Source of the DNA: Alphaproteobacteria bacterium
GTDB taxonomy: Bacteria > Pseudomonadota > Alphaproteobacteria > Bin95
Assembly: GCA_963665325.3 (NCBI GenBank)
Contig: OZ224045.1
Location: forward strand, 1,504,001 to 1,568,000
DNA length: 64,000 nt
Reading direction: 5' to 3'
Shown: one piece after another, positions 3,185 through 33,044 of the stretch
How positions within the stretch are numbered: position 1 is the first letter of the stretch
How the letters are laid out: each line of letters starts with the position of its first letter
Translations under genes and position numbers: made by a program
The notes under the pieces: generated by a model
What the model saw: the letters and a program-made list of their open reading frames with translations, nothing else
Databases searched by the model: none
Told to the model about the DNA's origin: nothing

Positions 3185-3679
3185 GGCGCGTCGCGCCGCA
3201 CCCCTCTCGGCCTGCCTCGCCGAAGCTCCGCCCGCCGCCATCCTGCATGCCGTTCCTCCATCGCGTTTCGTTCTACTCCGTTCCGTTTCCCCCGCCGCCG
3301 GCTTTCCCGGGCGGTGGGACCCTTTTTCGCGCGTATCGCGTGCGGGTGCGGGCGCCCGTTGGCGCCGGCGCGGTTCGCGCGCCTGATTGCGCCTGCGCGC
3401 GCAAGGCAAACGCAAGGCATACGTCTCCCGTTACTTTCTCAGGGCTCTTTTTTCGCGCCGGCGCGAACGGTAGGAACCCGGCCCCGCGCGGATACCGGTC
3501 CCTTCCTCCCGCCCCATATTGGCACGGTTGGTTCCGGTGTCAAGATCATGAATAAGAATTATTTCATATAACATGAACAAACGGCTGGTCGCAGTCGCGG
3601 GTCCGGCGGAGCAGGCCCCTTGTCTTGAGAGCCGGCGTCGTCATGCTTGCCTCGACAGTGGCGAGAGAGGGGCCCGACA

Positions 3680-4070
3680 GTGGAACCGATTGCGGAAACG
3701 GCCTATGCCAATCTGGACCGGCTCTCATGTCTCGAGATCCAGGGAGCGGCGCTGCCGCACGGCGTAAAGACGGGCCTCTACGAGGCGGCGCGGGAAGCCG
3801 AGGGCCGGCCGCTCACCCTTGCCGCGGCCGAACTGCTCGACCGGCCGCCGGCCCGTATCGGCATCGTCACGGGGGCCGCCGTTCCCGACCACATGCCCGC
3901 AGGCGAGAATGACGGACCGCTGGGCTCGGTTGTGCTGGCGCAGGCCCTCGTCCGCATGGGGCATCGGGTGAGTTTCTATACCGACCCGCCGGCGGCGCCG
4001 GCGATAGAGGCCCTGGCGGCGCGTTACGGCCTCGACGCGCCGACGGTGCATCTCGGCCTGCACGACACCG
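3680..4070 (+). pseudogene. 5' fragment of a D-glutamate cyclase-like (DUF4392) gene, interrupted by the integrative element
   Basis: GTG start after GAGAGGGG; IGIVTGAAVP...GENDGPLGSVVLAQAL matches the E(T/N)DGP motif; the frame stops a few codons after the ACACCG junction. Confidence 0.85.
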
Positions 4071-4074
4071 CGCA
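4065..4074 (+). repeat. attL-like core / target duplication ACACCGCGCA
   Basis: Matches 26681-26690 (ACACCGAGCA) at 9/10 with 6 bp exact; lies where the DUF4392 frame breaks. Confidence 0.8.
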
Positions 4075-4113
4075 GCGCACCGGTGGGTGCTAACTATCTG
4101 ACTTAGTGTCGTT

Positions 4114-4192
4114 TTTTCTCCCGAAAATATAGCGGTCGGGGAAGCGGTTTGCAACTGCCTGTTCCCCGGCTGCCACCGGAGCCGGGAGAAAA
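4114..4192 (+). promoter_or_regulatory. Long nested hairpin covering the RBS of integrase 1
   Basis: ttttctcccg(4114-23)/cgggagaaaa(4183-92); gcggtcggggaa(4132-43)/ttccccggctgc(4162-73); gcggtt/aactgc, with G-U pairs. Confidence 0.55.
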
Positions 4193-4195
4193 GGC

Positions 4196-5320
4196 ATGCC
4201 TGCAACCATCCTCACCGACGCCCGCGTAAGGGCGCTCAAATCGCGCAAGACAGTCCGCGACTTCCGTGACGGCAAGCTCAGGGGCTTCGGCGTGCGCGTG
4301 TCGCCGTCGGGCCGCAAGCAGTTCTTCATCCAGTGCCAGCATGGGGGCGAACGGACCTGGAGGATCGTCGGCGACGCCGGGAGCATGAACGTCACGGAGG
4401 CGCGGGCTTCGGCTGATGAAATGCTTGCCGCCGTCCGGCGCGGCGAGGACATGGTCCACGCGCCCGGCGAGACTGTCTTCGAAGCCGTCGCCGAGGCGAC
4501 GTTCGGGCATTACGAGCGGCTCTGGAAGCCGGGGACGCTGTCCGTCAATCGCTACTATCTTCGCAACCAGCTGTTGCCGTATTTCGCGGGGCGGACGATC
4601 GCCGACATCGACCGGCAGGAGGTGAGGAACTGGTTCGCCCGCCTGCACGCGACACCGGTCGCCGCGGACAGGTCCATGCCGATCCTGTCCGTCATCATGA
4701 CGGAGGCGGAGCGGCTGGGCCTGCGGCCCGAGGGCTCCAATCCCTGCCGGGGCATCAGGCGCTACCGCCGCAAGGGCCGGGAGCGTTTCCTGTCCGACGA
4801 CGAAATCCGCCGCCTGTCGGAAAGGTTGACTGCGCATGAGGCACGTTGGCCCGGACAGGCTGCGCTCATCCGCCTGCTGCTGCTCACCGGGTGCCGCAAG
4901 AGCGAAATCCTGACGCTCAGGTGGTCTGACTACCGGGACGCCCATCTGTTCTTGCGCGACAGCAAGACGGGGCCGAGGACCGTGTGGCTCTCCGGACCGG
5001 CGTGCGCCGTTCTCGACGGCATCGAGCGGAAGGGACGCTGGGTGTTCCCGGCGTCGCGGAGTGACCGCCCCCGGAGCATCAACTGGCTGGAACGTTTCTG
5101 GAAGCGGGTCCGCGCCGAGGCGGAGCTTGAGGACGTGCATCTTCACGACCTTCGCCATACCGTAGCCAGCCTGGCCCTCAGGCAGGGCGAGACCGTGCTG
5201 GCGATCGGGAGGCTGCTCGGCCACAACAGGCCCGAGACCACGCTGAAATACATCCACCTTGCCGACGCCATGGTGCGCGATGCCGCCGAGACGGTCGGCA
5301 CCGCGCTGGCAGGAGAATAA
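4196..5320 (+). CDS. Tyrosine recombinase/integrase 1 with arm-binding (DUF4102-like) N-domain
   Basis: GFGVRVSPSGRK arm domain; catalytic LTGCRKSE, DSKTG, HDLRH, LLGH, TLKY. Confidence 0.95.
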   Translation: MPATILTDARVRALKSRKTVRDFRDGKLRGFGVRVSPSGRKQFFIQCQHGGERTWRIVGDAGSMNVTEARASADEMLAAVRRGEDMVHAPGETVFEAVAEATFGHYERLWKPGTLSVNRYYLRNQLLPYFAGRTIADIDRQEVRNWFARLHATPVAADRSMPILSVIMTEAERLGLRPEGSNPCRGIRRYRRKGRERFLSDDEIRRLSERLTAHEARWPGQAALIRLLLLTGCRKSEILTLRWSDYRDAHLFLRDSKTGPRTVWLSGPACAVLDGIERKGRWVFPASRSDRPRSINWLERFWKRVRAEAELEDVHLHDLRHTVASLALRQGETVLAIGRLLGHNRPETTLKYIHLADAMVRDAAETVGTALAGE

Positions 5321-5323
5321 GCC

Positions 5324-6493
5324 ATGGCGGCAAGAGAGAAGATGAAGCTCACCAACGCCGCCATTGCCCGGCTCCGGCCCCGCGAGCGGGAATACACGGT
5401 CTGGGACAGCGGCATTGCCGGCCTCGGCGTCCGGGTGCGGCCCACCGGCGGGCGCAGCTATGTGTTGCTTCTGGACATCGGCGGGCGTACGAAGCGCATC
5501 TCGCTCGGCCCGGTCGGCGTGAAGAGCCTTGAGGAGATCCGCAGGGAATGCCACGGCCGCCGCGCGAACCCGGAGCCCGGGACAAGGGTCGAGGCGGCCT
5601 GTCCGGTCCCGCTGTTCCGGGACTTCGTCGCGGGGCCGTGGAAGGCGGCGCATTACGACCGCTACAAGCCTTCGACGAAGAAGACCGCCCGATATACGCT
5701 GGCGAGCCAGCTTCTGCCCGTCTTCGGGTCGAAGCCGCTGGACCGCATAAGCGAGGCGCGGATCGGGCGCTGGTTCGACCGCTTCAGCCGCACCGCGCCC
5801 GGCAACGCCAATCACATACTCGGCCGCCTCCGGCAGATCCTGAACTTCGCCATCGCCTGCGGCCATATCGAACGCAATCCCGCCGACGGCATCGCGCTCA
5901 ACCGGCGGGCGAAGCTCATGCGCTTCCTGTCCACGGAGGAGCTCGGACGCCTGCATGCCGCGCTGGATGCGCAGACCCGCAAGGACAGACGGCCGCAGGC
6001 AGACATCATCCGGCTGCTGCTGCTCACCGGATGCCGCAAGGGCGAGATCGTCAATCTGCGCCGGTCGGAAATCCGCGACGGCATGCTGGCGCTCGCCGAT
6101 GCCAAGACGGGGCCGAGGACGGTTCCGCTTAACAACCAGGCCCGCGCCATTCTCGACCGGCAGCCGCGCGGCGGAAGCCCTTTCGTGTTCCCCTCTCCGC
6201 TCGACCCTGCCCGCCCGCGCACTGAACTCACCCTCTGGTATCGCGTCCGCCGCGAGGCCGGAATCGAGGACTGCCGTCTTCATGATCTCCGGCATACGAT
6301 GGCGAGTCACGCTGTCATGAACGGCGTGCCGGTACCGGTGGTCTCCAGGTTGCTGGGCCACAGCAACGTGCAGATGACGCTGCGCTACGCCCATCTCGCC
6401 GACCGCGACATCAAGGCGGCGGCAGAGCGGGTGGGGGAAGCCATGGCGAAGACCATGGCGGGTGACCCGTCCGAGGCACATGATCAGAACTGA
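5324..6493 (+). CDS. Tyrosine recombinase/integrase 2, paralog of integrase 1
   Basis: GLGVRVRPTGGR arm domain; LTGCRKGE, DAKTG, HDLRH, LLGHS, TLRY; AGGAG RBS inside the end of integrase 1. Confidence 0.95.
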   Translation: MAAREKMKLTNAAIARLRPREREYTVWDSGIAGLGVRVRPTGGRSYVLLLDIGGRTKRISLGPVGVKSLEEIRRECHGRRANPEPGTRVEAACPVPLFRDFVAGPWKAAHYDRYKPSTKKTARYTLASQLLPVFGSKPLDRISEARIGRWFDRFSRTAPGNANHILGRLRQILNFAIACGHIERNPADGIALNRRAKLMRFLSTEELGRLHAALDAQTRKDRRPQADIIRLLLLTGCRKGEIVNLRRSEIRDGMLALADAKTGPRTVPLNNQARAILDRQPRGGSPFVFPSPLDPARPRTELTLWYRVRREAGIEDCRLHDLRHTMASHAVMNGVPVPVVSRLLGHSNVQMTLRYAHLADRDIKAAAERVGEAMAKTMAGDPSEAHDQN

Positions 6494-6579
6494 CCATGCC
6501 GGCACGATAACAGGCATGCACGATTACGTATGGCGCGACAAACAGGATGATACGAATCTCACCTTGATCGCTGCGCCAT

Positions 6580-7110
6580 ACTCGCGGCGCTCAAGTCCGA
6601 CTTCGCCGCCGGGATGATGCCGTCGGGGCGGTTCGGGGCGAGCGCCGCCTGGCTGTGGCTGGCGGCGATGGCGCTGCTGCGCCGCGCCGCCTACGGCCCC
6701 GAGTGGCGCTGGATACGAATGAAGTGCATCCGCGCGGTATGGCTCCACCTCGTCGCTCGCGGCGTGCGTCACGGGCGAGGGGTCAAGGTCGTGCCTGGCG
6801 CCGGCGGCGCCCATCTCATGGCCTCGCGCCAGCGGATGAATCTGGCCATGCCGCCGCTGGCATCCGCGCCCGGCTGACCCCACCTCGAACGGATCTGCAC
6901 CGATAAAACAATCCGGCACGACGCCGGACGGAGCCGCGCGCGCCCAAGACGTCGGTGAAGACCCAACCATCCCGAAAATGCCGACCTTCCCGCTCCGCAA
7001 AAGCCTCTTGCAAGCGACAACAGCCTGATCGACGACCCGGCAGAACCCGACAGCCCTGCTCAAGGCCGAAATCCAGTCGCAGCAAAAGAAATCAGTTCGC
7101 CGATCGGGGG
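6580..7110 (+). mobile_element. IS1380-family remnant (transposase C-terminus and probable right end)
   Basis: ALKSDFAAGMMPSGRFGASAAWLWLA...RMKCIRAVWLHLVARGVRHGR resembles the IS1380 transposase tail; non-coding tail ends in ...CCGATCGGGGG. Confidence 0.6.
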
Positions 7111-7330
7111 CTCGTGCCACGGCTTGACTCCCGCGCCCATGCGCCGGACATTTTCTCTCGCAGACATTCCGCGCGTCCCGCTCTGTCGGGTCGCCCGCCG
7201 AATAGAACAGCCTGATACCCGGCGAGGGGTAGCTCCCCGCGCTTGGCGAATAGGCGGGGTCATCTCACGTGCGCGTGGAGTGTCTGCAACGGCCTGACGC
7301 CAGCCGGCCGGGCCTTGCAGAGGGTCCGTC

Positions 7331-12387: not shown

Positions 12388-13554
12388 CTAGAGGTTCTCG
12401 TCGCGGTAGCGCTGCCACCAGGCAGGCCATTCCGCGGCAACATCGACCTTTTCGCCTTTTTCTTTCTTCTCCAGGCGCATGGCGTCGAAATCGCCATTGG
12501 CCATGTCCCAGACCTCGATGACCTTCTCCAGCCGCGCGAGCCGCTCGTCATGCCAGGCCTGGTCTTCGGCCGTCCAGTAGCCTTTTTCCTTGGCGTAGCG
12601 GATCGAGCCTTCGTGCCAAGGCGCGTCCGCCGGCGGCCGACCCGCCTTGTCGAGGGCCCAGTTGAAGGAGCTCGCCGTGGTGTTCCTGTAGTCGTCGAAG
12701 CTCATATCGAGAGCCTTCACGAGGTTATAGACCTCATCCGCGCTCTGGCGGGCATAGGTGGTAATCATCGGATAGCGGTAGCCGACCAGCCAGGTCGGGT
12801 TCTCTTCCGATAGGCCCGCGCCGCGCGTTTCCTCCACCGGCTTGACGAAGCTGATAATGCTCTTCATCGCATCCCAGCCGGCCTTGTTGTCCGGCCGGAA
12901 TGGTGGCCAGTAGAGACCGCGCGGGCTCGCCTCGATCTGGCGCATGTTCGCCGAGGTCGTGACGCTGCCAAAGGCGTCGAGCTGGTTGGCGAGCAGCGCG
13001 TCCTTCATAGCCCGGTAGCTGCCGAACCACACCTGCTGCACATCGTCCCTGGTCAGGCCGCCGAAGGCAAGATAGCCGTCATTCTTCACATTGACGGAGG
13101 GGTTCGCCTTGACGAAGCCGATCCGCTTGCCTTTCAGGTCCGACAATTCCTTGACGCCGATATCGCCGGCGGTGGCGAGCCCAACCGCGGCGACGCGGCC
13201 CACGGCGATCCGGAGGTCCTGCGGTCCCCATTCGCGCACCGCGAAGTCGTAAGTGCCTTCCGCGGCGAAGAACGCCTCATTGGCGAGGAAGCCGTAGGAC
13301 ACCTTGCCGGTCGACATCGGCAACAGGCGCCCGATGGAAGTGCCGGCAGGCACGATACGGATGCGGGTGCCGTAATTCTTCCTGAATGCATTGGCGATGC
13401 CGGCGGCTTCAGCATAGCCGGAGGAGCCGAGATCGTAGGCGCTCCAGACCATGGATTTCGGAAGTTTCGGCGCTTGGCCGTCGGCGGCGGCAGCGCCGAC
13501 GAAAGCGAGCGCCGCGGCGCCGGCGACGAGGCCGGTCAGAATACGCGAAGTCAT
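12388..13554 (-). CDS. TAXI-family TRAP solute-binding protein
   Basis: Signal peptide MTSRILTGLVAGAAALAF; WSAYDLGSSGY, DLKGKR, PWHEGSIRY; adjacent to the fused permease. Confidence 0.9.
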   Translation of the reverse strand: MTSRILTGLVAGAAALAFVGAAAADGQAPKLPKSMVWSAYDLGSSGYAEAAGIANAFRKNYGTRIRIVPAGTSIGRLLPMSTGKVSYGFLANEAFFAAEGTYDFAVREWGPQDLRIAVGRVAAVGLATAGDIGVKELSDLKGKRIGFVKANPSVNVKNDGYLAFGGLTRDDVQQVWFGSYRAMKDALLANQLDAFGSVTTSANMRQIEASPRGLYWPPFRPDNKAGWDAMKSIISFVKPVEETRGAGLSEENPTWLVGYRYPMITTYARQSADEVYNLVKALDMSFDDYRNTTASSFNWALDKAGRPPADAPWHEGSIRYAKEKGYWTAEDQAWHDERLARLEKVIEVWDMANGDFDAMRLEKKEKGEKVDVAAEWPAWWQRYRDENL

Positions 13555-13639
13555 GCTGGGTTCATTCTCCCGGTTGCGAAACGGCGGCCGCCATTGCTGG
13601 GCGGCCGCCAGGCCGAGTCCGTCAGGGACGCGGCAAGGG

Positions 13640-13920
13640 TCAGTTATACCCCGTCTCGGCAAGATTGAGCAGCGGGTAGGCGCTGAACACGGAGGGCGGG
13701 TTGGTGGGCTCGGCGGGAACGACGAATTCCGGGCCGAGATCCCGCAGTCCGCGCAGCCCATAAGGCCGAGCGCCATCATCGTCTCGTCCTCCAGCAGCTC
13801 CAGCATGGCGATGACGCCAGATTCGCCGTTTGCGGCGAGCGCCGCTGCCAGTCGACCGATGACGACCGCGCTGCCGCCGAGCGCGAGCGCCTTCACGACA
13901 TCCGTGCCGCCGCCGTCCAC
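13640..13920 (-). pseudogene. 3' remnant of an FMN-dependent alpha-hydroxy-acid oxidase
   Basis: VDGG-GTDVVKALALGGSAVVIGRL...LLEDETMMALGLMG, then a frameshift to ...PSVFSAYPLL..GYN*; small deletions, 5' part missing. Confidence 0.75.
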
Positions 13921-13974
13921 TCAGACTTCGGCCCTCATGCTTGGTTTCCGCATAATAGGAGGCGGTCCAATGCG

Positions 13975-14504
13975 AGATCGTGCGAGGCTTCTCCCACCTT
14001 GAACCAAGACAGGATGGCCCCCGACGCCCGGTTGAGCGGAAACATCAGCAGGTAGAATCCGTAGAGCGGGTAGGCACAGCAACGAGACCGGCTCGGGCTT
14101 TCGTATCGCGAAGGTCTTCGGAACCTGTTCGCCCACTACGATGTGCAGGGAAGAGAATGTGACGAACCCGATGATAAAGGCGACCGTGTGCAGGGCCTCT
14201 TCCGGCAGGCCCAGCTCCGCGGAACATGAGTTCGAAATGCGCCGCCACGGTAGGCTCACCGATCCATCCCAGGCCCAGCGACGCCATGGTGATCCCCAAC
14301 TGGCAGGCAGCGAGATAAGCCTCGAGGTTTCCGAGGATGCGTCGGGTCATGCGAGCCGAACGACTGCCGTCGTCGGCGAGCGCCTCGACCCGAAACCCCT
14401 TCGCCTTGACCAGCGCGAACTCGGCCGCGACGAAAAAGCCGTTGGCGACCAGCAGCGCCGCCGCCGTGACGAGGGCGATTGCCGAATTCTCCGTCTTGGG
14501 TCAC
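13975..14504 (-). pseudogene. Frameshifted 5' remnant of a CNNM/HlyC-CorC (DUF21) gene
   Basis: ANGFFVAAEFALVK, YLAACQLGITMASLGLGWIGEP, LHIVVGEQVPKT spread over different frames; truncated. Confidence 0.8.
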
Positions 14505-15776: not shown

Positions 15777-18700
15777 TTAACGGGGAATGAAATAGCGGTT
15801 TTCGCCGTCCGGGCCGTCCGCTGTTCGTTGCGCCGCGCCGGCAGCGGCGAGGGTTTCGAGGGTCTTTTCCACGGCCTTGCACCGGCGGGGCGAATCCTTG
15901 CCCTTGAAGGCTTCGCTCAACGCTGCCGCACCGGCGGGAGCGGCGGCGCGGTCCAGCATGTCGCGGAGCGCGCGGATGCGGGCCAGCTCCTCCCTCGGCC
16001 ATGCCGGCTTGCCCTTGGCGGCCTTCGGCGCGGCAAGGTCCGCCTCCTCCTGGTGGCCCTTCGCCTTGTGGCCGAGCTTCGGTATCTGGTAGTCGGGCCG
16101 CAGCCAGCGGACCGTGCCGACTTGCTCCTCTTCCGCCCGCTCCCGGTTCAGCGCGACGAGGCGGGCGAGCAATTCCTCCTCCGCTTCCTCCTGTTCCGGC
16201 GTCTTGTGCGGCGAGGGCATCGTGGCGCCCGGCCTGCCGATCAGCGCAGGCGCGAGGTCAGCCCAGCCGTAAGCCTCGAAGACGCCGCGGTCTATATCGT
16301 CGTGGATTTCCTTCAGGACCGAGACCAGCCCGGTCTCGTGAGCCTCCCGCTCCTTCGGCGTGAGTGCCGGAACCTCACAACCGTTATCCAGTTCCCGCAC
16401 CCGCTCCAGCACATTGTAGAGCGCCGTCATGGTTAGAAAGTTGCGCTCGGCGAGACGTTCCTTGCGGAAGCTGTCGAGGCGTTCGCCAAGATCGGCAAGC
16501 ACGGGGGCCAAGTTGTTCTGCCCGTCAAGAGCAGGAAACGGCATAGGGTCGAAGGTACGGGACTTGCTGTAGCGCGGATCATTGCCCATTCCGAGCCAAC
16601 CGCCAGCCTCAATCGACCAATGAACATGAACCCGAGAAGACAGCACTGCAAGCAAACTTGCCGCATCGGAACCAATACAAACAAGCATATTGTCAGGCCT
16701 TATATTTGCATCGAGAAATTGGAAGAATCGGTGCTTCGATGTTTCCGACGTAGCAATGTAGCGATCCAGAGGCTCGAGAACCGGCCTCAAATCGGAACGT
16801 GGTTCGCCGAAAATCCACCAGTTATCGCGATAGGTCCGGCGGTTGTTCTGGTCCCGATCCGGTTTCACATGGTCGAGGACATGCTGATAAACTCTTGGAA
16901 ATTGCTCGCGCACCTGTTTCGCTGATAGCGGCCAGAGGTCGACAACCATAACACCGCGTGGATGCCGAGCGAGGTCCTGGCCGTTGCGGTAGGGCAGGAT
17001 ATGCTTTTCCAGTCCCGGCACAGACCCGAGGCCGAGCGCCTCGGCCTGTCGCGGCGTAACTTTGAAGCCGGCGCCGTGCAGCTTGACGCCGGGGCTGGAA
17101 ATCATGTCGTTCGCCAGCAGCGGCCGGACCGCTGTAATGTCCGCGCCGACTTTCAGATTGCCGGCGATCCTTCCGTTCCGTTCCCTCAATTCGACAAGCG
17201 GCGTATCGGTATTGAGGCCGTCTTCCCGCACAACCGCCGCGAGCCTGCCTTCGCTTCCGCCGCGCACCGCAACGGTCATGGCGATGCGCACCGCCGCCTT
17301 GTCCACCGCCTTCAGCCACGGATGGTCCGGCACGGCATAAGCCAGCGCCAATGGCTCCTTCGCCTCCATATGCCGTTCGATCACGCGCCGGGAAAAGGTC
17401 TGCGTCACCGAATTGGTGGTGATGAAGCCGAAGCGGCGCAGCGGGTTGATTCCGCCCTTCCTCGGCTTTCCCAGCAGGCGCGCGGCGGCCTCGTCCCAGA
17501 AGTGCATGACGAAATCCGCGCCGCCGGGAACCTTCTTGCGCGCCTTCCAGCAGGCTTCGGCGTAGCCGTCGCCGAGCTTCAAGCGCATGTCCTTCCCGCC
17601 GATGAAGGGCGGGTTGCCCACGACGAATTCCGCCTCCGGCCACTCGGCCGGGCGGGGGTTCTCGTAGCGGTACAACTCCACCTGCGCGTCGGGATCGGGA
17701 ATCTCCTCGCCGGTAATCGGATGCAGCTTCATCGTGACGCCGTCCCAGCGGGAAAGCGGCTTGCCGTCCTCGCCGCGAAGGACCTCCTGTCTGTCCCAGG
17801 CCAGAACCGCATCCTGCTCCCGGATCGTGCCGTAGGCGTGCAGCACGGGCTCGGCGATCCGGTCCAGCGGGAAGGTGCGAAGCTGCCATTTCAGGTAGCC
17901 GAGCCACAGCACCAGATCTGCAATAGCGACGGCGCGCGGGTTGAGTTCCAGCCCGTAAAACTGGCGCGGGCCGACCGTCTCTCCCTCCATGACGAAGCGC
18001 GGTGCGTTCTCGCCCAGCCCCTCCAGCGCGTCCAGCGCCTCGCCTTCGAGCCGCTTCATCAGTTCCAGCGAGACATAGAGGAAATTGCCGGTGCCGCAGG
18101 CCGGGTCCAGCACGCGGGTCGTGCAGAGCTTGTGGTGGAAGTCCTTGACCCTGTTGAGCGCGGCGTCGCGGTCCCCCGCCTCGTCCAGCGCATGGGCCTC
18201 CGCCAGCGCCGCTTCCCAGTCGGCGCGCAGCGGCTCGATAATCGTAGGCACGACCAGCCGTTCCACATAGGCGCGCGGCGTGTAATGAGCGCCGAGTTCC
18301 CCGCGCTCCCGCTTGTCCAGCGCGCGTTCCAGAAGCGCGCCGAAAATGGCCGGCTCCACATCGCGCCAGTCGCGCCCGGCGGCGATACGGAGTTCGCGGA
18401 TTTCGTTCGCCTCCAGCGGAATCGCCGTGCGTTTCCGGAACAGCGAGCCGTTGAAGCGCCTGACCGTCGCGTTCAGGTGCGGGGCGTAGCCGCCCTCGTC
18501 CATGACCTGCCACAGGCTCTCCAGCGCCGGGGCGAAATGCTGCGGCGTATCGACCATCCGGCCCAGCAGCGTCTCGAAGCCCTTCTCCGGCAGCAGGCCG
18601 ACATCCTCGGCGAACATGGTGAACAGGCAGCGCATGAGGAATTCGGCGACTTCCTCGGGGTGGTGGCCCCTGTCTTCCAGGCTGCGGGCGATGCGGGCGA

Positions 18701-19409
18701 GGCGCTCGGCGATGTCGCGGGTGACCTCGGCGCTCCGCCGGGCGGGGTCGAGCGACTGCGGGTCGGTCCAGACTGCCCGCAACCGGGCGCGGATAGCCGG
18801 ATCGCGCAGGCTCGCCAGCGGAATGGAATAGCCCTCGCGATCCGGAAATTGGGCATAATTCTTCCCCTGGCCGGAGAAGTCGGCATAGACCTCGAAGACG
18901 TGTCCGACATCGACGACGAGGATGAAAGGCGGCCAACCGTGCTCCGCCGGCAGGGCGCGGGCATAGCCCTCCGCCTGTTGTTTGGCGGCGCTCATCGTCC
19001 GGTCCCAGCCGCGTGTGCCGCGCGTCGCCGCGCCTGCCTTCGCCTGCATGGCATCCTCGGAAAGCATGTCCGTCTGGCGTGGGTCTGCGGTGTTCTTCGC
19101 CTTCCGCTTGGCGGACTGCTTCGCCTCCATGACGAAGCTGCCGCGCCGGTAAAGGTCGATCCTTCCCGGCGTCGTGCTGCCGTCGTCATGCTTGAAGTCG
19201 ATGCGCCGCTCGAACACATAATTGTTGTATGCGTTCTGCGTTAGTGACGGTTCGGGTTCCGGCAGGCGGAGCAGACGGCAGAGTTCGCCGGCGAATGTCT
19301 GGAAGTTGGCCAATTCCGAGCCGCCGGATTCCCGCCAGCGGTCGATGAGGGCGTCGATATCGGCGGCGGCGACGCCGTCCTCGGGCATTTCGGTTTCCGA
19401 GCCTGTCAC
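15777..19409 (-). CDS. MmeI-like type IIL restriction-modification fusion (nuclease-methyltransferase-TRD)
   Basis: IDLY...VMEAK PD-(D/E)xK, GAHYTP, VLDPACGTGNF, VVGNPPF, C-terminal TRD and L..LN.ERA motif. Confidence 0.92.
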   Translation of the reverse strand: MTGSETEMPEDGVAAADIDALIDRWRESGGSELANFQTFAGELCRLLRLPEPEPSLTQNAYNNYVFERRIDFKHDDGSTTPGRIDLYRRGSFVMEAKQSAKRKAKNTADPRQTDMLSEDAMQAKAGAATRGTRGWDRTMSAAKQQAEGYARALPAEHGWPPFILVVDVGHVFEVYADFSGQGKNYAQFPDREGYSIPLASLRDPAIRARLRAVWTDPQSLDPARRSAEVTRDIAERLARIARSLEDRGHHPEEVAEFLMRCLFTMFAEDVGLLPEKGFETLLGRMVDTPQHFAPALESLWQVMDEGGYAPHLNATVRRFNGSLFRKRTAIPLEANEIRELRIAAGRDWRDVEPAIFGALLERALDKRERGELGAHYTPRAYVERLVVPTIIEPLRADWEAALAEAHALDEAGDRDAALNRVKDFHHKLCTTRVLDPACGTGNFLYVSLELMKRLEGEALDALEGLGENAPRFVMEGETVGPRQFYGLELNPRAVAIADLVLWLGYLKWQLRTFPLDRIAEPVLHAYGTIREQDAVLAWDRQEVLRGEDGKPLSRWDGVTMKLHPITGEEIPDPDAQVELYRYENPRPAEWPEAEFVVGNPPFIGGKDMRLKLGDGYAEACWKARKKVPGGADFVMHFWDEAAARLLGKPRKGGINPLRRFGFITTNSVTQTFSRRVIERHMEAKEPLALAYAVPDHPWLKAVDKAAVRIAMTVAVRGGSEGRLAAVVREDGLNTDTPLVELRERNGRIAGNLKVGADITAVRPLLANDMISSPGVKLHGAGFKVTPRQAEALGLGSVPGLEKHILPYRNGQDLARHPRGVMVVDLWPLSAKQVREQFPRVYQHVLDHVKPDRDQNNRRTYRDNWWIFGEPRSDLRPVLEPLDRYIATSETSKHRFFQFLDANIRPDNMLVCIGSDAASLLAVLSSRVHVHWSIEAGGWLGMGNDPRYSKSRTFDPMPFPALDGQNNLAPVLADLGERLDSFRKERLAERNFLTMTALYNVLERVRELDNGCEVPALTPKEREAHETGLVSVLKEIHDDIDRGVFEAYGWADLAPALIGRPGATMPSPHKTPEQEEAEEELLARLVALNRERAEEEQVGTVRWLRPDYQIPKLGHKAKGHQEEADLAAPKAAKGKPAWPREELARIRALRDMLDRAAAPAGAAALSEAFKGKDSPRRCKAVEKTLETLAAAGAAQRTADGPDGENRYFIPR

Positions 19410-20135: not shown

Positions 20136-23100
20136 ATGGTCGCGACGGTGACGAATATCGGCTCGGCGAGTTCGACGGTCCACTATTTCGAGCAGGACGG
20201 CTACTACGCGAAGGGGGACCCGGAGCACCGCAAGGCGAGCTTCTGGCACGGGGAGGCGGCGCAGGCGCTGGGCCTGGGGCGGCACGTGTCGCCGAAGCGC
20301 TTCAATGCGATCCTTGAGGGCCATGTGCCGGGGACGGGGCTGCGCCTCGGCCGCATGCGCGACGGCGGGCACCAGCACCGTCCGGGATTGGACGTCACGC
20401 TGTCGGCACCGAAGTCGGTGTCGCTGGCGGCTCTGCTGCACGGCGACAAGCGAGTGATCCGCGCGCATGACAAGGCGGTGCGGGCGGCGCTGGACCGGGT
20501 GGAGGCGGAGCTGTTGAAGACGCGGGGCTGGGACCCCGCAACGCGGCGCCGCCCGCGCGTGAAGGCGCACGGCATGGTGGCGGCGACCTTCCGGCATCTG
20601 GCGAGCCGCAACCTGGACCCGCAGCTGCACACGCATTGCGTGGTGGCGAACATGACCCGGAACGGCGCCGGGGAGTGGCGGAGCATCGAGGCGACGGCGA
20701 TCCGGCGCAACAGGAAGCTGATCGGGGCGCATTACCGCAACGAGCTGGCGCGGCGGCTTCAGGAGATGGGCTACGAGACCGTGCCGACGATGATCGGGCC
20801 GGTGCCGGGCTTCGAGCTTGCGGGCTATGACCGGGAAATGCGCGACGCGTTCTCGACCCGGCGCCGCGACATCCTTGAGGACATAAAGAAACGGGGCGGC
20901 CCCTACAGCGCGGCCAGGGCGCAGCAGGCGGCGCTCTTCACGCGGCGGCGCAAGGCGGAGCCGGCCATGCATCTGCTGCGGCGGATATGGCGGCGGCGTG
21001 CCCGCGAGGCCGGCCTGCTGCCCCGCGAGGCGGCAGCACGGGCAAGGCGCGAGCGGCGGGACAGGCGGCAGGCAGACGCGCGCCCCGTTCTGCCGGTGCT
21101 TGAAGCGGTCTGGCGGGCGGTGGAACATCTGGAGGAGCGGTCGTCGGTATTCGCGGCGGGCGACATTGCGGCGCATGCGCTCGGCCAGGCGCCCGGGCGG
21201 TATTCGGTCGAGGAGGCGGAAGCGGCGATCGAAGCATTGCGCCGTGACGGTCATCTGGTTGAAGCGGTACTGCGCGGGGCGGACCGGGCCTTCGTCACCG
21301 ACCGGGCGCTCAGGGCCGAGCGCGGCAATATCGGCTGGATGCGCGACGGCGCCGGCGCCGGGCAGGCGGCGGCGGACGGGGCGGCGGTGGAGACGGAACT
21401 GGCGGCCGGCCTGCTGACGGAAGGCCAGCGCGAGGCGGTGCGCACGATCCTGCTGTCGTGCGACCGTGTGGTGGGCGTGCAGGGCCATGCGGGCACGGGC
21501 AAGACGACCATGCTGCGCGAAATGGCGCGACTCGCGGGCGAGCGAAAGGTGGTGGGTCTCGCGCCGTCGAAGGCGGCGGTGCGGGCGCTGGAGCGGGAGG
21601 CGGGCATTCCGGCGCGGACGCTGCAATGGTTCCTGGCGCGCCACCGGGATATCGGCGACCGGATGGCGAGCCCGGAGCGGCTGGCCGAGGCGCGGCTCGC
21701 GTTCGGCGGTGCGGTGCTGGTGGTGGACGAGGCGTCCATGGTGAGCGCGGCGCAGATGCGCCAGACGATGCGCATTGCCGAGCGGATCGGGATCGCGCGC
21801 CTGGCACTTGTCGGCGACAGCGGGCAGCTGCGTTCGGTCGAGGCCGGTCAGCCCTTCCGGCAACTTCAGCAGGCGGGCATGGCGACGGCGCGCATGGACG
21901 AGATCCTGCGCCAGCGCGACCCGGACCTGCACGAAGCGGTCGTGGCCATACGGGAGGGGGAGCCTGCCGAGGCCATGGGCCGCCTCGGCGACAATGTCCA
22001 CGAGGCGGAAGCGGACGAGCTCGGCGAGGCGGCGGCCCGGCTCTGGCTCTCGCTCCATCCCGAGGCGCGCGCCCGGACGGCGATCCTGGCGCCGACCCAT
22101 GCGCTCAGGGAGGACATCAACGAGGCGGTGCGCGAGGGGCTTCGCGACGAGGGCGTGCTGCACGGGCGGGTTCTGGAGATCGAGCGGCTGGTCGGCCTAG
22201 GGCTCACGCGCGCGCAGAAGGCCGATATCGCCAGCTACCGCCCCGGCGACGTGCTGGTCTTCCACAACGACATTTATCAGTTCCGGGTGAAGACGGACGA
22301 TGCCTGCACGGTGACGGAAACCGATCGTGGACAGGTATCGCTGCATCATCCCGACGGGCGGCCGCGCCGGATCGATCCCTCGGACCCGATCCGCTACCGC
22401 TACGAAGTCTACGAGACGCGCCCGATCCGCCTTCAGGCGGGCGACCGCATCCGGTGGACGCGCAATGACGGGAAGCGCGGCCTGGTCAATGGCGACGAGG
22501 CGGAGATCCTCTCCATTGGCTACCGGTTCGTGAAGCTGGAGACGGATGACGGCCTCACCCTGTCACTGCGCCGGGACGATCCGCAGCTGCGCCATGTCGA
22601 CCATGCCTGGAGCGCGACCCTGCATGCGGCGCAGGGCACGACCCGCGACAATGTCATCGCAGTGCTGGACTCGGGCCATGACGCGCCTGTGGACCGGGCG
22701 GCGTTCTATGTCGGGATCAGCCGGGCGCGCGACAATGCGGTGGTGCTGACCGACAACCGCGAGGACCTTGTCGAGGCGCTGGAGGAACATGCGGGCCTGC
22801 CGATGACGGCGCTGGAGGCGGTGGGCGAGGAGATCGCCCCGCCTGTGCCCTTGCCTATCCCGGAGCACGAGGCGGTGTGGCCGGAGCTTTCCGCCTGGCG
22901 CGCGCTGGAGGAGGAGGCGCGGCAGCAGGGCACGATCCCGTATTATATGGAGGGATGCGCGGAGGCGGTCGAACGGCTTGCCGAGCTTGGCCGCGCCCCC
23001 GGCATATCGGCAGGTATCGCCGCCGAGGCGAAACGCGCGGCCGAGACGCACGAAGCGGCAGCCGCGGCCCGCGCCGCCCTCGACCGGCTGCATGAGAAAC

Positions 23101-24464
23101 TCGAGGCCGAAATCGCCGGGCGGACCGGCCTTACCGACAGGACCGGCGACCGCGGGCGCGACTACGAGCTCTGGTGCGCGGGGGAGCTGAAGCTCCGGGC
23201 CGAGGCGGACGGGATCGCCGGAGAGGAGGAACGCTACCGGCCGCATCTCAACGCCTTGCCGGCGATTCGCGACGGCATCGCAGAAGCTTGCGAGAAGCTG
23301 AAGGGCATCCTCGAAGCGGACAAGGCCGTGCTCCCCATCCTGGATGACTGGAGGGCGCTGGACGGGCGCGCGAGGGAGGCCGGAACGCACTGGTTCCACG
23401 AAGACGGCCGCGAGGACGTGCTCAGCCGCATTGAAACGGTGCCGGAACTGCCGCACATGGACGCCGCCCTGCGCACGGGCCTTGCCGCCATTGTCGCGGA
23501 GGGACGCGGCATCGCCGCCGCGGAAGACAGGTTCAGGCCGCTCGCAAAGAGGCTCCGCGACTGCGTGGAGAAGCGCCAGCGCCTGATCGAGAGGACCGGG
23601 GAACTCAGGGCGACATATTCGCTCGATTCGCGACTTGAGACCTGGCGTGAGGAGGCGGGCCGCCTCCTGGACGAGGCGCGGGACCTGCTGGATGCAGGCG
23701 GCTCGTTCGCGCATGCCGGCGCCCTGCCGGACCTGCGCGACGGCATTGCGGCGGACCGCAGGTTGCTGACGGACGCGGTCTGGCTTGACCGGCGCCTTGC
23801 GGCATGCCTGCTGGAGAGGCGGGAGATCGCGAGGCGGGAGAGCGAGGGGCCGCTCTTCTACCGCGAGGGCAATGAGGAGGTCGTGCTGCGCATGCGGCTG
23901 ATGGCGATGGAGCCGGAGCTGAACGGGGACACGCGCGCGCTCCTCGACCGGCTGGTCGCGGAGCATGACAGGGAGGCGGCGGCACGCTCGGAGGTGGAGG
24001 GCCTCGTCCGGGACCTCGGCTCCGCCCTGGAGGCGCGTGAGCAGCTGTCGGACGTCACCGCGCCGCGCGGCAGGAGCCTGACGGAGGACGGGGCGAGCTA
24101 CCGGATCTGGTCGGAGGTGGCGCGGCAGCTCTGCAGGACGGCAGAGCGGATTCTCGGAGAGGAGCGGTATGCCGTTCACCTGGACCGTATCGAGGGCGCG
24201 CGCGAGGCCATCGGACGGGACGGGAAGAGGCTCTCGCAGGCGCTGGAGACCGATGCGGCTTACGGCAGGATCGCCCCGAAGCTCGGCCGCTACGACCTGG
24301 GCGGTCCCGAACGGAGAAGGGTCGCCGGGGAGGCCCGGCGGCTGCTGACGCGCCCGGAACTGGACCCCGGCGCCCGCAAGAGGCTCGAACGGCAGGTCGG
24401 CATCCACGATGCGGCCCGGCGGCAGGACCGCAGCCGCGATATCGGCGGCGGCATGACGCCCTGA
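20136..24464 (+). CDS. mobF: MOBF (TrwC/TraI-like) conjugative relaxase-helicase with long C-terminal extension
   Basis: YFEQDGYY tyrosines, DVTLSAPKSVS, FRHLASRNLDPQLHTH, FSTRR; helicase GHAGTGKT, DEASM, HAAQGTT, YVGISRAR. Confidence 0.95.
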   Translation: MVATVTNIGSASSTVHYFEQDGYYAKGDPEHRKASFWHGEAAQALGLGRHVSPKRFNAILEGHVPGTGLRLGRMRDGGHQHRPGLDVTLSAPKSVSLAALLHGDKRVIRAHDKAVRAALDRVEAELLKTRGWDPATRRRPRVKAHGMVAATFRHLASRNLDPQLHTHCVVANMTRNGAGEWRSIEATAIRRNRKLIGAHYRNELARRLQEMGYETVPTMIGPVPGFELAGYDREMRDAFSTRRRDILEDIKKRGGPYSAARAQQAALFTRRRKAEPAMHLLRRIWRRRAREAGLLPREAAARARRERRDRRQADARPVLPVLEAVWRAVEHLEERSSVFAAGDIAAHALGQAPGRYSVEEAEAAIEALRRDGHLVEAVLRGADRAFVTDRALRAERGNIGWMRDGAGAGQAAADGAAVETELAAGLLTEGQREAVRTILLSCDRVVGVQGHAGTGKTTMLREMARLAGERKVVGLAPSKAAVRALEREAGIPARTLQWFLARHRDIGDRMASPERLAEARLAFGGAVLVVDEASMVSAAQMRQTMRIAERIGIARLALVGDSGQLRSVEAGQPFRQLQQAGMATARMDEILRQRDPDLHEAVVAIREGEPAEAMGRLGDNVHEAEADELGEAAARLWLSLHPEARARTAILAPTHALREDINEAVREGLRDEGVLHGRVLEIERLVGLGLTRAQKADIASYRPGDVLVFHNDIYQFRVKTDDACTVTETDRGQVSLHHPDGRPRRIDPSDPIRYRYEVYETRPIRLQAGDRIRWTRNDGKRGLVNGDEAEILSIGYRFVKLETDDGLTLSLRRDDPQLRHVDHAWSATLHAAQGTTRDNVIAVLDSGHDAPVDRAAFYVGISRARDNAVVLTDNREDLVEALEEHAGLPMTALEAVGEEIAPPVPLPIPEHEAVWPELSAWRALEEEARQQGTIPYYMEGCAEAVERLAELGRAPGISAGIAAEAKRAAETHEAAAAARAALDRLHEKLEAEIAGRTGLTDRTGDRGRDYELWCAGELKLRAEADGIAGEEERYRPHLNALPAIRDGIAEACEKLKGILEADKAVLPILDDWRALDGRAREAGTHWFHEDGREDVLSRIETVPELPHMDAALRTGLAAIVAEGRGIAAAEDRFRPLAKRLRDCVEKRQRLIERTGELRATYSLDSRLETWREEAGRLLDEARDLLDAGGSFAHAGALPDLRDGIAADRRLLTDAVWLDRRLAACLLERREIARRESEGPLFYREGNEEVVLRMRLMAMEPELNGDTRALLDRLVAEHDREAAARSEVEGLVRDLGSALEAREQLSDVTAPRGRSLTEDGASYRIWSEVARQLCRTAERILGEERYAVHLDRIEGAREAIGRDGKRLSQALETDAAYGRIAPKLGRYDLGGPERRRVAGEARRLLTRPELDPGARKRLERQVGIHDAARRQDRSRDIGGGMTP

Positions 24465-24467: not shown

Positions 24468-24920
24468 TCAGCTGTCCGGCCGGCGGGCCTTTGCGGCGTA
24501 TTGCCGGGCGAGCTCCGAACCCCGGGCCTCGCCGAAGGCGTCCCGGAGCAGGCCGCGCATCCGCTCTTCCTGGCCCATCTCGATCATGTCGGTCATGAGC
24601 CGTTCGAGCAGCACGCCGAGCACCGCCGGCAGTTCCGCCATGCCCGCCGGATCGGGCGGGGCCGGACCCAGCCACCGCTCGGCGATGCCCGCAACGCGGT
24701 CGTGCAGTTGCCGCTGTTCTTCCTGTCCGAGGATGAGGGAGGGCGGCGAGGCAGCCTCGTCTTCGGCAGCATCGAGGTCGACCGTCAGGCCGCGCTCGAT
24801 GACGAAGGGCGAGAGGTTCATGCCGGCTTCCGCCGCGCGCTTGCCGATTTCCTCCCTCTGCCAGTCGGTGCAGGAGAAGGAGCGCACGATCTTCTTCGGC
24901 CCGGAGCGCGGACGCCTCAT
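24468..24920 (-). CDS. RHH/MobC-like protein (third of three)
   Basis: IVRSFSCTDWQREEIGKRAAEAGMNLSPFVIERGL; ATGA overlap with the upstream gene. Confidence 0.75.
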   Translation of the reverse strand: MRRPRSGPKKIVRSFSCTDWQREEIGKRAAEAGMNLSPFVIERGLTVDLDAAEDEAASPPSLILGQEEQRQLHDRVAGIAERWLGPAPPDPAGMAELPAVLGVLLERLMTDMIEMGQEERMRGLLRDAFGEARGSELARQYAAKARRPDS

Positions 24921-25237
24921 GCCGCCTCTCCCGGTTCTTCGGACGCCAGCAGTCGGCAGAGGAGCGCGACCGCCTCGAAGGCGGACATGTCCATGCCCGG
25001 CAGCGGCGCCAGCATGGTCCGGCTGCAAAGGTCGAGCCGCGCTACCCGGTCGTGGAGTTCCCGCTGTTCCTCCCCCGTCAGCACGAGAGCCTGTCCCGTA
25101 CGGGGCTCCGCATCGCTCTTCAGCGCGCAGGCGACCAGGAACGGCGAGACCTTCATGCCCGCCGTCTTCGCCCGCGCCTGGATGCGCGACCACTCCGCCG
25201 GCGTCGGATAGAGGCAGCGCGACTTCGCCTGCTTCAT
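24917..25237 (-). CDS. RHH/MobC-like protein (second of three)
   Basis: SRCLYPTPAEWSRIQARAKTAGMKVSPFLVACAL; ATGA overlaps on both sides. Confidence 0.75.
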   Translation of the reverse strand: MKQAKSRCLYPTPAEWSRIQARAKTAGMKVSPFLVACALKSDAEPRTGQALVLTGEEQRELHDRVARLDLCSRTMLAPLPGMDMSAFEAVALLCRLLASEEPGEAA

Positions 25238-25563
25238 GCCAGTTCCTCCTGCCGGTCCAGCCAGGCGTCCACTTCGGCCGCCAGCGCCGCGCGCTCCTCC
25301 GACACATGCTGGCCGGCCATACGCTGTTCTTCGATGCGGCCGAGCAGCAGCACCTCACGCGCCACCTGCCGCCAGATCTGCGCCGGCAGCCCGCCCGGCC
25401 CCCGGTCCGGCGGCGGGCCCGGGTCCGCCTCCACCAGCCGGTGGACGATGAAGCGCGAGACCGGCATGCCCGCCTCCTTCGCCCGCGTCTTCAGCCGGAG
25501 CCACTCGCTGTCGGTCACTGTAATGGCGTGCTGGCGCCGCCGGTCCTCCCTGTCCCTCGTCAT
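25234..25563 (-). CDS. RHH/MobC-like protein (first of three)
   Basis: QHAITVTDSEWLRLKTRAKEAGMPVSRFIVHRLV; AAGGACGAAGG upstream. Confidence 0.75.
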   Translation of the reverse strand: MTRDREDRRRQHAITVTDSEWLRLKTRAKEAGMPVSRFIVHRLVEADPGPPPDRGPGGLPAQIWRQVAREVLLLGRIEEQRMAGQHVSEERAALAAEVDAWLDRQEELA

Positions 25564-26680: not shown

Positions 26681-26690
26681 ACACCGAGCA
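26681..26690 (+). repeat. attR-like core ACACCGAGCA
   Basis: Sits at the abrupt AT-rich to GC-rich transition where the DUF4392 frame resumes (T-E-Q-Q-D-A). Confidence 0.8.
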
Positions 26691-27261
26691 ACAGGACGCC
26701 ATCGCCGCAGAACTGGATGTCGCGGTGGCCGTGGAGCGCCACGGCGGCAACCCGCACGGCAATCTATACGGCGTCACCGGAACGCCCCGGCATACCTTCC
26801 GGGCGAACGTGGACCACCTGTTCGGGACGGTGGCCGCGTCCGGCAAGCCGACCCTCGGGGTCGGGGACGGCGGCAATGAGGTCGGCTTCGGCAGGATCTA
26901 CGACACGCTTTGCGCCCGCATGCCGGAATACAACCTGAAGGAGAAGACCGCGTGCGGCGGCGGCATCTTCACGGTGATGCCGACCGACGTGCTGGTCGTC
27001 GGAACGTCGTCCAATATCGGATGCTACGGCGTTGTCGCGGCGCTCGCGCTCAGGCGAGGCGAACTGGAGCTTTGCCACACGCCGGACGAAGAGCGCGCCA
27101 TCACCGCCTACGGCGTCGAGCTCGGGCTGACCGACGGGGGCAGCGGGACGGTGATCGCCGCCGTGGATGGCGTGCCCGTGGACGACAATGCGGCTGTCGT
27201 CCACCTCATGCGGGCGGTGGTCCGCCGCGCGCTTTCCCGGCCCGGCGACCGGGGTTTCTAG
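26687..27261 (+). pseudogene. 3' fragment of the D-glutamate cyclase-like (DUF4392) gene
   Basis: VAVERHG, TLGVGDGGNEVGFG, SSNIGCYG, VDG motifs; no RBS or convincing start of its own. Confidence 0.88.
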
Positions 27262-32685: not shown

Positions 32686-32742
32686 CCCGCAACAAGACGA
32701 CCCGTCGCGCAGACGGGCCGAACGAAGAGGAGGAGCAGACGC

Positions 32743-32934
32743 ATGAGCAGCAGAACGGACGGCGAGAAGGCCAATCGCCGGGACTTTCTGAAGCTCGCAT
32801 CGGTATCGGTGCCCGCAGCCGCGGTGGCGGTAGTGGCGGGCGGCGCGGCCGAAGCGGCGGTCCCGGACGAGAAGGGCGAGCGGATGCAGGATACCCCGCA
32901 TACGCGCGCCTATTACGAAAGCGCCCGTTTCTGA
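32743..32934 (+). CDS. Small twin-arginine FDH-region protein
   Basis: NRRDFLK Tat motif, TPHTRAYYESARF tail, GAGGAG RBS. Confidence 0.85.
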   Translation: MSSRTDGEKANRRDFLKLASVSVPAAAVAVVAGGAAEAAVPDEKGERMQDTPHTRAYYESARF

Positions 32935-33044
32935 CGGACGTGTCTCGCCGAGGCATGGCCAAAGGTTGCGAGACGCCCGGCGGCCATCGGCATGACGAAC
33001 CCGGCGGACCGGCCAGCGGCCGGAACGCCTGACGGAGGAACAAG

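Follow-up and report, generated by a model that had tools for sequence, protein, structure and literature searches.

Two adjacent genes for paralogous tyrosine integrases, here called Int1 and Int2, stand just inside the left end of a 22.6-kb genomic island (4065/4077 to 26680/26692) in the genome of Alphaproteobacteria bacterium (assembly GCA_963665325.3, 5.58 Mb in 5 contigs). We analyzed them within a 64,000-nucleotide stretch of contig OZ224045.1 (positions 1,504,001 to 1,568,000; G000:C1:1504001-1568000 in our numbering; G+C content 58-72% across it), referred to below as the window, and positions are those of the window unless a contig (C1 to C5) is named. As judged from the comparisons below, Int1 and Int2 form a strictly paired, tightly spaced and selected module at the island end, which is its sole conserved coding part. 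Our reading, to which we give a probability of about 0.55, is that they serve a family of integrative elements as its recombination module of two enzymes, working jointly as a hetero-oligomer in both integration and excision.

A preliminary description of this DNA, made from the sequence alone, had pointed to two intact integrase genes in tandem (4196-5320 and 5324-6493, + strand), each with an arm-binding N-domain and a full R-K-HxxR-H-Y catalytic set, and to a nucleotide block common to both; all of this is borne out. The Pfam domain Arm-DNA-bind_3 (PF13356, cut-off 27 bits) scores 50.6 bits in Int1 and 30.2 in Int2, and Phage_integrase (cut-off 27.1) scores 72.3 and 83.7 bits, respectively. 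Among the core-binding domains, the SAM-like Phage_int_SAM_3 is over its cut-off in Int1 and slightly below it in Int2, the central Phage_int_M exceeds it in Int2 alone, and PF14659 or PF22022 does so in Int1 and in Int2. The six catalytic residues could be located in each protein (R234, K257, H317, R320, H343 and Y352 in Int1; R238, K261, H320, R323, H346 and Y355 in Int2). Both proteins thus have the catalytic domain of the tyrosine recombinase superfamily (Arg, Lys, His-x-x-Arg, His/Trp and the Tyr nucleophile) and the P4-type/IntSXT-type order, in which an arm-binding domain (DUF4102 / Arm-DNA-bind_3) precedes a SAM-like one for core binding; the N-domain matches PDB entry 3jtz, a CP4-like integrase. 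Int1 and Int2 are 41% identical over 375 residues (E = 3e-63), and the common 18-nt block caagacggggccgaggac, found at 4963-4980 and again at 6103-6120, encodes a conserved KTGPRT hairpin. In PHROGs, both fall in generic "integrase" families only, and nothing was found there for 8 other open reading frames (ORFs) of the island.

The arrangement recurs in other genomes. A scan of public genomes, with one genome per species, gave 79 loci with 80 Int1 genes, and an Int2-type gene lies directly 3' of Int1 in 77 of the 80, far beyond chance. The unpaired exceptions are L064, where 3.3 kb of inserted DNA part the two genes, the decayed L072, and L075, so a finding that would have told against the preliminary description, homologs that mostly occur singly, is not what we see. 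Within the window's own genome, each of the 12 Int2-type frames has an Int1-type frame or fragment as its neighbor, in one case at a distance of 3.3 kb. Metagenome contigs anchored on Int2 provided only two Int2-clade loci with upstream sequence, both with Int1 upstream, which is too small a sample to weigh; in the metagenome scan, more distant relatives that fall outside the Int1/Int2 clade stood alone for the most part. No gene family was common to the 4 kb 3' of Int2 (61 loci), the largest cluster there (8 loci) being another Int1.

Most public loci come from metagenome-assembled genomes of Alphaproteobacteria, with a few in Gammaproteobacteria and in Chloroflexota or Dehalococcoidia; the named groups with loci include Defluviicoccus, Boseongicola, Amylibacter, Paracoccaceae, Silicimonas and Rhodospirillaceae. 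In the genus of the window, Int1-clade matches (E <= 1e-100) were found in 13 of 16 other species genomes, at 1 to 28 per genome, and in an even sample of the class they were found in 3 of 400 other genomes (four candidates per genome scored). The family is patchy overall and strongly expanded in some lineages. A protein search returned 7741 relatives among 8000 scored candidates, and those with names are titled only "site-specific integrase" or "tyrosine-type recombinase/integrase." The plasmid collection held no close relative, the best matches being 38-41% identical. A distant pair in the same order, with a 4-nt overlap, is present on the megaplasmid of Shewanella oneidensis MR-1 (L116, record positions 32496-34993). 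Its first gene is 38% identical to Int1 (253 bits, versus 158 for Int2) and its second 39% identical to Int2 (234 bits, versus 154 for Int1), and the MR-1 pair could be an experimental entry point in a model organism. Down to this level of about 38% identity, the family keeps its pairing, its gene order, the close stop-start spacing and both catalytic sets. At 3330-3420 of that locus, 5' of the pair, stand an ACACC with a short palindrome after it, and a T-rich box resembling the left end of the family described below.

The preliminary description had suggested testing whether the two genes form two co-evolving clades, and they do. In a maximum-likelihood tree (FastTree) of 77 Int1, 77 Int2 and 7 other integrases of this genome, all 77 Int1 and all 77 Int2 proteins were monophyletic; the Int2 node and that of the joint clade each had a support of 1.0, the Int1 node one of only 0.26. 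Pairwise distances in the two sets were highly correlated (r = 0.93, a value reached by 0 of 999 Mantel permutations), with identity within a pair of 33-42%; together with the 77 of 80 pairings, this tells against an accidental duplication. The six catalytic residues (R, K, H, R, H and Y) are all kept in 77/77 Int1 and 77/77 Int2 proteins, lengths range from 369 to 406 amino acids in Int1 and from about 379 to 435 in Int2, and the ratio of nonsynonymous to synonymous substitution rates (dN/dS) was 0.18-0.33 for both genes in seven comparisons; both are maintained, under purifying selection.

The spacing between the genes is tight and conserved as well. As had been described, Int1 and Int2 of the window share one frame (both ORF starts are 2 modulo 3), with TAA GCC alone before the second ATG, and their stop-to-stop frames abut exactly (G000:C1:1508133-1509320 and 1509321-1510493). 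The frame is shared because the spacer is 3 nt long. Among the 77 public pairs, the distance from stop to start was +3 in 56, -1 (TGATG) in 13 and -4 (ATGA) in 4, with rarer values of +2 (2 pairs), +4 (1) and 0 (1), so that the gap never exceeds 4 nt and no gene lies between Int1 and Int2. Eight of the 10 pairs of this genome have the stop-NNN-start form and 2 have overlaps. Spacings of +3, -1 and -4 are classic for translational coupling and fit it here.

The island itself is an insertion bounded by direct repeats that start with ACACC. It interrupts a gene for a D-glutamate cyclase-like protein, whose first third lies to the left, with a frame that continues to a TAA supplied by the island (4091-4093), and whose remainder lies to the right (Table 1). 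In nine of nine loci from species of the same genus, the target gene is uninterrupted, with both parts contiguous, and the sequence left of 4076 resumes at 26681; the overlap at this point is 10-12 bases in eight of them, and in the ninth (L019) the BLAST pieces overlap by 5. The uninterrupted gene and the overlap place the pair inside the left end of an inserted island. The left junction reads ...CACG ACACCGCGCAGC GCACCGGTGGGTGCTAAC..., the right one ...TTGTGTT ACACCGAGCAAC AGGACG..., and the empty site in the relatives ...CACG ACACCGCGCAGC AGGACG..., i.e., the 12-bp repeat is imperfect. The two mismatched core positions are of the target type at the left attachment site (attL) and of the element type at the right one (attR), in what is a single event, and classical heteroduplex would yield this polarity half of the time. 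No tRNA is found at either island end, the only one in the window being at 51946. The short asymmetric non-tRNA target of the preliminary description is real, an ACACC-led repeat of 10-12 bp inside a protein gene.

The left terminus of the island, next to the crossover, is a conserved inverted repeat. Its motif occurs at 14 sites in the genome, each upstream of an Int1-type gene. Across the family, the order at the left end is ACACC, 5-8 nt, GCACC, 3-4 nt, GGTGC, TAAC and then a T-rich box; the strict form ACACC-N5-8-GCACC-N3-4-GGTGC was present in 56 of 73 public loci, most of the others being one change off, and L091 and L100 have the paired variant GCATC..GATGC. In the empty sites, ACACC and the next 5-7 nt pre-exist in the target, which places the crossover between ACACC and GCACC. 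Targets vary from copy to copy: L055 and L056 are 95% identical, yet their cores are ACACCAGCGAGC and ACACCGGTGAGC. Conversely, one element recurs in 100% identical form at two sites that share their core (the second copy of L024, and L033). Right ends are conserved between close siblings only, and arm-type repeats common to both ends of the island were limited to one uninformative 8-mer (GTTCCCCG and its complement). From the left terminus to the Int1 start runs a conserved non-coding region, aligned from 62 unique sequences, whose last part (TTCCCCGGCTGC.ACCGGA.CCGGGAGA, 4158-4195), directly 5' of Int1, is strongly conserved and by its sequence could pair to mask the ribosome-binding site. 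A promoter-like site is found on the opposite strand at 4154-4126. We considered the GCACC..GGTGC hairpin as a terminator and rejected it, as no terminator-like site is present in 3900-6800.

Other copies in the genome repeat this picture. Searched with Int1 by tblastn, the genome gave 49 matches, and a frame-by-frame listing reduced them to 10 distinct intact Int1-Int2 pairs plus decayed copies. Between copies, the DNA is alike from a sharp start about 130 bp 5' of Int1 as far as the 3' end of Int2, within which the likeness fades, and the flanks outside this homologous block differ. A compact 2.4-kb "two-gene transposon" was rejected on this ground, since the copies have no right terminus in common, their homology running out within Int2, and the true right end is 20 kb away. 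Two sibling elements confirm the reading of the sites by their repeats and empty sites. In one of 11.2 kb (C1:1786961-1798176), the 12-bp repeat is perfect, with ACACCGGGCAGC at the empty site as well as at attL and attR. Another, of 16.5 kb, starts near 694625 on C3, has its right repeat at 711133 and shows the 10-bp repeat ACACCAGCAC. No join across the ends of the 11.2-kb sibling (L114) was found among the joins listed from Logan contigs of 4 public runs, which were short-sided links between homologous integrase blocks; no RNA run was listed among the public runs with this sequence. A third sibling of 19 kb on C5 shares 99.5% identity with the window's island at the right end, its integrase pair being only 91.6% identical in DNA; the polarity of its insertion had to be dropped, the empty sites of other species being too diverged.

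From these data, we propose the following working model. Translational coupling would provide Int1 and Int2 in near-equal amounts, and the two would assemble as a hetero-oligomer on an asymmetric core and share the strand exchanges as XerC and XerD do. One half-site would be the ACACC common to the target and the right end, the other the element-specific GCACC-N3-4-GGTGC, with the crossover in the 5-8 nt between them. The target would be chosen by ACACC and partial identity of the following 5-7 nt, so that many different non-tRNA sites could serve, and the pair alone would perform integration and excision, with no conserved excisionase. The heterodimer modelling that the preliminary description had suggested gave weak support. 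Predicted from family alignments, the Int1+Int2 complex had an ipSAE of 0.43 (best of three controls, 0.02), the runs agreed in at least 82% of contacts and the partner pLDDT was at least 76. Of 157 solved complexes, 116 attain the mark we use for such scores, as do 2 of 215 mismatched pairs; the value for Int1 and Int2 exceeds the controls and falls in the low range of scores, where both passing mismatches are also found. A heteromeric mechanism is plausible as far as sequences and models go.

Several points weigh against the joint hetero-oligomer. The support from the predicted complex is weak, given that an ipSAE of 0.60 or less occurs in only 18 of the 157 solved complexes and in both passing mismatches. 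Oligomers of tyrosine recombinases are solved structures, and the score may come from family likeness to them. The correlation of distances is what any two linked genes would give and speaks of co-inheritance, not of binding. What we say of Int1-Int2 binding, activity and strand roles is, in sum, deduced from sequences and models. ACACC and GCACC, moreover, repeat in direct and not in inverted orientation, at a spacing that varies from 5 to 8 nt, which would be an uncommon geometry if the core were fixed. In the C5 sibling, the empty sites in other species match the core at only about 7-8 of 12 positions, which makes the role of core identity less certain. Excisionases are small and diverse, and one could be encoded elsewhere in the elements or by a frame of less than 75 amino acids. 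Lastly, several copies of the pair in this genome are decayed, and the activity of the window copy is therefore putative.

The main rival, which we consider unlikely, is a division of labor in which one integrase integrates and the other excises or directs excision, replacing a recombination directionality factor. The comparison would be with FimB/FimE, a pair that acts on one switch with different direction biases. Strict pairing and the full catalytic sets of both enzymes are as expected for it, and so is the want of an excisionase: no conserved gene of that kind is beside the pair, and no excisionase-type Pfam match was found among the island ORFs of at least 75 amino acids. Against this, translational coupling would give joint, not alternative, expression, Int1 and Int2 are indistinguishable in their relation to attL and attR, and the complex prediction, weak as it is, leans the other way. 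We find it improbable that the two are independent or redundant enzymes, i.e., a relic of two elements accreted in tandem, or that Int2 serves another task, such as multimer resolution or a second att site. Accretion does take place, as in the 8 of 61 loci with another Int1 within 4 kb 3' of Int2, and the genome has other recombinase arrays too, but the fixed order of Int1 then Int2, the gap of at most 4 nt in 77/77 pairs, the reciprocally monophyletic clades and the purifying selection on both genes are hard to reconcile with it, and there is no room for an att-like site between the genes.

The preliminary description had also noted that read-through of the single stop would give a fused double integrase. 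As the functional product, such a fusion is very improbable. It could be made in 57 of the 77 pairs, which are in frame without a further stop (the 56 with gap +3 and the one with gap 0), and nature has made it at least once: the 773-amino-acid metagenome protein P0123 is an in-frame fusion in which Cys replaces the stop and both catalytic sets are intact. However, 20 of the 77 pairs are out of frame (gaps -1, -4, +2 and +4), as are 2 of the 10 in this genome, so that read-through is not a conserved property, and every Int2 has its own start codon. Natural fusions, which the preliminary description had proposed to look for, do exist, but they are rare. P0123 is the one clean case among 10 matches of at least 656 amino acids; frameshift or truncation accounts for P0124 and P0125, P0126 falls short of a full double integrase, and none of the remaining six has two integrase modules by its listed Pfam domains. 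To return to the joint action of Int1 and Int2, a bolder version would make the pair an obligate heteromeric arm-binding integrase, of a hitherto undescribed type, that needs no excisionase. The 5-bp anchor ACACC would be all that it recognizes, and the 5-7 nt after it would serve for homology or coupling. We advance it as a tentative possibility. If it were true, the core of the element itself, not the protein, would set the target, and the core could drift from site to site, which would explain the near-identical pairs of L055 and L056 at different cores and the bursts within the genus, where a single genome has up to 28 Int1-type matches. It would amount to a naturally retargetable integrase system.

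How does the pair compare with known recombinases? By domain content, each protein alone is an arm-binding (P4/IntSXT-like) integrase, with the same order of arm-binding, SAM-like core-binding and R-K-H-R-H-Y catalytic domains, a gene at the element end by attL and an element flanked by direct repeats. The heterobivalent integrases of the P4 and IntSXT types, found in genomic islands, ICEs and satellite phages, act singly with a separate small directionality factor, usually at a tRNA, a tmRNA or another fixed locus. Here, in contrast, there are two coupled paralogues (77 of 80 Int1 genes are paired), no conserved excisionase or other neighbor is seen with them, and the targets are varied, short ACACC-led sequences in ordinary genes, not a tRNA or tmRNA at the island end or one fixed gene. 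XerC and XerD are paralogues that bind different half-sites of an asymmetric core, each exchanging one pair of strands, and it is this likeness of two paralogous tyrosine recombinases that underlies our working model. Int1 and Int2 differ from them in having arm-binding domains, in riding a mobile element and in integrating DNA. Their matches to the XerC and XerD models of NCBIfam (TIGR02224/TIGR02225) reach 43.7-70.4 bits against cut-offs of 330-335, and all their Xer and integron matches there are sub-threshold. The location of the genes in an island missing from relatives argues against a housekeeping role like that of XerC/XerD at a chromosomal dif site under FtsK control. RIT (recombinase in trio) elements are trios with inverted-repeat ends, and GInt elements carry three integrases and GinD. 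They are also arrays of recombinase genes moving as one unit, but we find two genes, not three, in the window and in 77 public loci, and the GmtZ match of Int2 in NCBIfam is 25 bits against a cut-off of 600.

There is a likeness in organization to Tn554 (TnpA, TnpB and TnpC) and to strand-biased circularizing integrative elements (SE; IntA, Tfp, IntB and Srap). According to the available part of one account (PMC10214605), both require two tyrosine recombinases encoded in one operon, with suggested translational coupling and non-tRNA targets, about 6 bp by the element ends derive from target or donor, and one recombinase is ordinary and the other large, with one or two further essential proteins. 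As far as that part goes, the Int1-Int2 element shares the two recombinases in one operon, the suggested coupling and the non-tRNA target. The polarity of the window core, target-type at the left end and element-type at the right, would fit the pattern reported for SE and Tn554, but it is a single informative event, since two siblings have perfect repeats and the C5 sibling is equivocal. The differences are, again within that part, that no arm-binding domain is reported for Tn554 or SE, whereas Int1 and Int2 both have one, and that the Int1-Int2 element has a clean empty site in relatives and direct repeats of 10-12 bp. Int1 (374 amino acids) and Int2 (389) are also short of the about 600 amino acids or more of the large recombinase, and nothing that would correspond to TnpC/Srap or Tfp was found between the genes or shared within 4 kb 3' of them (61 loci). 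The bipartite module (BIM) of Cupriavidus was considered as a two-recombinase element and set aside, since the part of its description available has it as one recombinase and an unrelated protein (PMC3414803). By its sequence features, the pair thus appears to belong to none of Xer, Tn554, SE, GInt, RIT and BIM.

Integrative elements with one tyrosine integrase are textbook matter, and multi-recombinase systems (Xer, Tn554, SE, GInt and RIT) are few and poorly understood. The preliminary description had suspected an undescribed class of element, and its suspicion stands as far as our search went: no published description of a tandem or paired arm-binding (DUF4102) integrase module was found, subscription journals and supplements lying outside the search, and the parts available of PMC3414803, PMC8138268, PMC10214605 and PMC12884075 do not describe one. 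This is, then, a real and conserved two-integrase module that is apparently undescribed in the literature searched, and it adds a further widespread two-recombinase system, made of ordinary arm-binding integrases. Its anatomy is simple and well defined, in that one end is conserved, the core is led by ACACC and the two genes are coupled, and it comes in many natural copies with empty-site controls. It could reveal how two paralogous integrases share one reaction and how an integrase uses short, variable, non-tRNA targets. Such elements carry cargo, e.g., defense genes, in this case a restriction-modification enzyme of the MmeI type. For annotation, tandem "site-specific integrase" genes of this type should be taken as one island-end module, not as duplication or decay.

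Table 1. Features of the window around the Int1-Int2 pair and its island
Feature	Position	Strand	Basis or content
5' part of the interrupted host gene, D-glutamate cyclase-like	3647..4076	+	Pfam GLUCM-like_C, profile 13-98 of 291
attL core ACACCGCGCAGC, left copy of direct repeat	4065..4076		Identical to the empty site of relatives
Island left terminus	4077..4093		GCACC (4077-4081), GGTG, GGTGC (4086-4090), TAA
Conserved non-coding left-end region	4094..4195	+	TAACTATCTGA, T-rich box TTTTTTCTCCCG, TTCCCCGGCTGC.ACCGGA.CCGGGAGA with ribosome-binding site; putative function
Int1, tyrosine integrase with arm-binding N-domain	4196..5320	+	374 amino acids; Pfam domains and catalytic residues
Junction TAA GCC ATG	5318..5326	+	Int1 stop, one codon, Int2 start
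Int2, paralogous tyrosine integrase with arm-binding N-domain	5324..6493	+	389 amino acids; Pfam domains and catalytic residues
MmeI-type restriction-modification enzyme (cargo)	15777..19409	-	1210 amino acids; Pfam MmeI_N, MmeI_hel and MmeI_Mtase over cut-off
TrwC-type relaxase-helicase	20136..24464	+	1442 amino acids; Pfam TrwC 253 bits, AAA_30
Three tandem NikA-like ribbon-helix-helix mobilization genes or repeats	24471..25563	-	Pfam NikA-like
attR core ACACCGAGCAAC, right copy of direct repeat	26681..26692		10/12 positions as in left copy
3' part of the D-glutamate cyclase-like gene	26693..27261	+	Pfam GLUCM-like_C, profile 127-291 of 291

The island, scanned with Pfam for ORFs of at least 75 amino acids, looks like an integrative mobilizable element (IME), since TrwC and NikA-like genes are present and no type IV secretion or coupling-protein match was found among these ORFs. 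The features usual for an IME are all there, namely the integrase module with its att repeats, a site left empty in relatives, and a relaxase with no complete conjugation machinery among the ORFs scanned. In the restriction-modification gene, the MmeI_TRD match is under the cut-off (22.7 versus 27 bits). One NikA-like unit scores 34 bits, over the cut-off of 27, and the others 26 and 22.8 bits, under it; the units are DNA repeats of 311-335 bp (family D1), and such a triplication beside a TrwC relaxase is unusual for a relaxosome accessory gene. Other island genes include two family-25 glycosyltransferases, an FkbM methyltransferase and a TRAP transporter gene. Part of the cargo is decayed (6583-7111 and 12388-14350), with fragments of an FMN-dependent dehydrogenase (FMN_dh) and a CNNM-type membrane protein, and contig C2 has two places that match one stretch at 88-93% identity. 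The remainder of the window has core genes (CTP synthase, enolase and DnaE).

Some further observations concern the other copies. The pairs at C1:777 kb and C4:13 kb were rejected as a recent transposition, since the flank, too, is duplicated, in a block of 14.4 kb that reaches a contig end. The two were for this reason counted once, an apparent eleventh pair belonging to this block. Blocks of 12-14 kb at contig ends are 99.7-100% identical (C1:777009-791436 with C4:14439-1, and C1:804781-817154 with C3:1337637-1325264); they are true large repeats or assembly overlaps and inflate copy counts. In another species of the genus, an element of the 16.5-kb type (L113, G011:C2:2187565-2191176) occupies the same target site as on C3, with 92.8% identity over 3.6 kb, and is either an old shared insertion or repeated use of the same site. 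A single ORF on C4 (G000:C4:80988-82157, - strand) has the N-terminal part of Int1 and the C-terminal part of Int2, joined exactly at the KTGPRT nucleotide block, and breaks off after HDLRH into unrelated AT-rich sequence. It is a deletion chimera of the two paralogues, and a probable 57.7-kb element, with the perfect 10-bp repeat ACACCAGGTC, has it at its left end. Other same-strand arrays of 2-4 tyrosine-recombinase frames (C1:615368-620207, C3:1061876-1064329, C4:37426-39978, C3:6882-9511 and C5:1-2636) are only 38-44% identical to Int1 and may be RIT-like or further paired families, and one such array interrupts Int1 in a decayed pair (C3:1064446-1065348).

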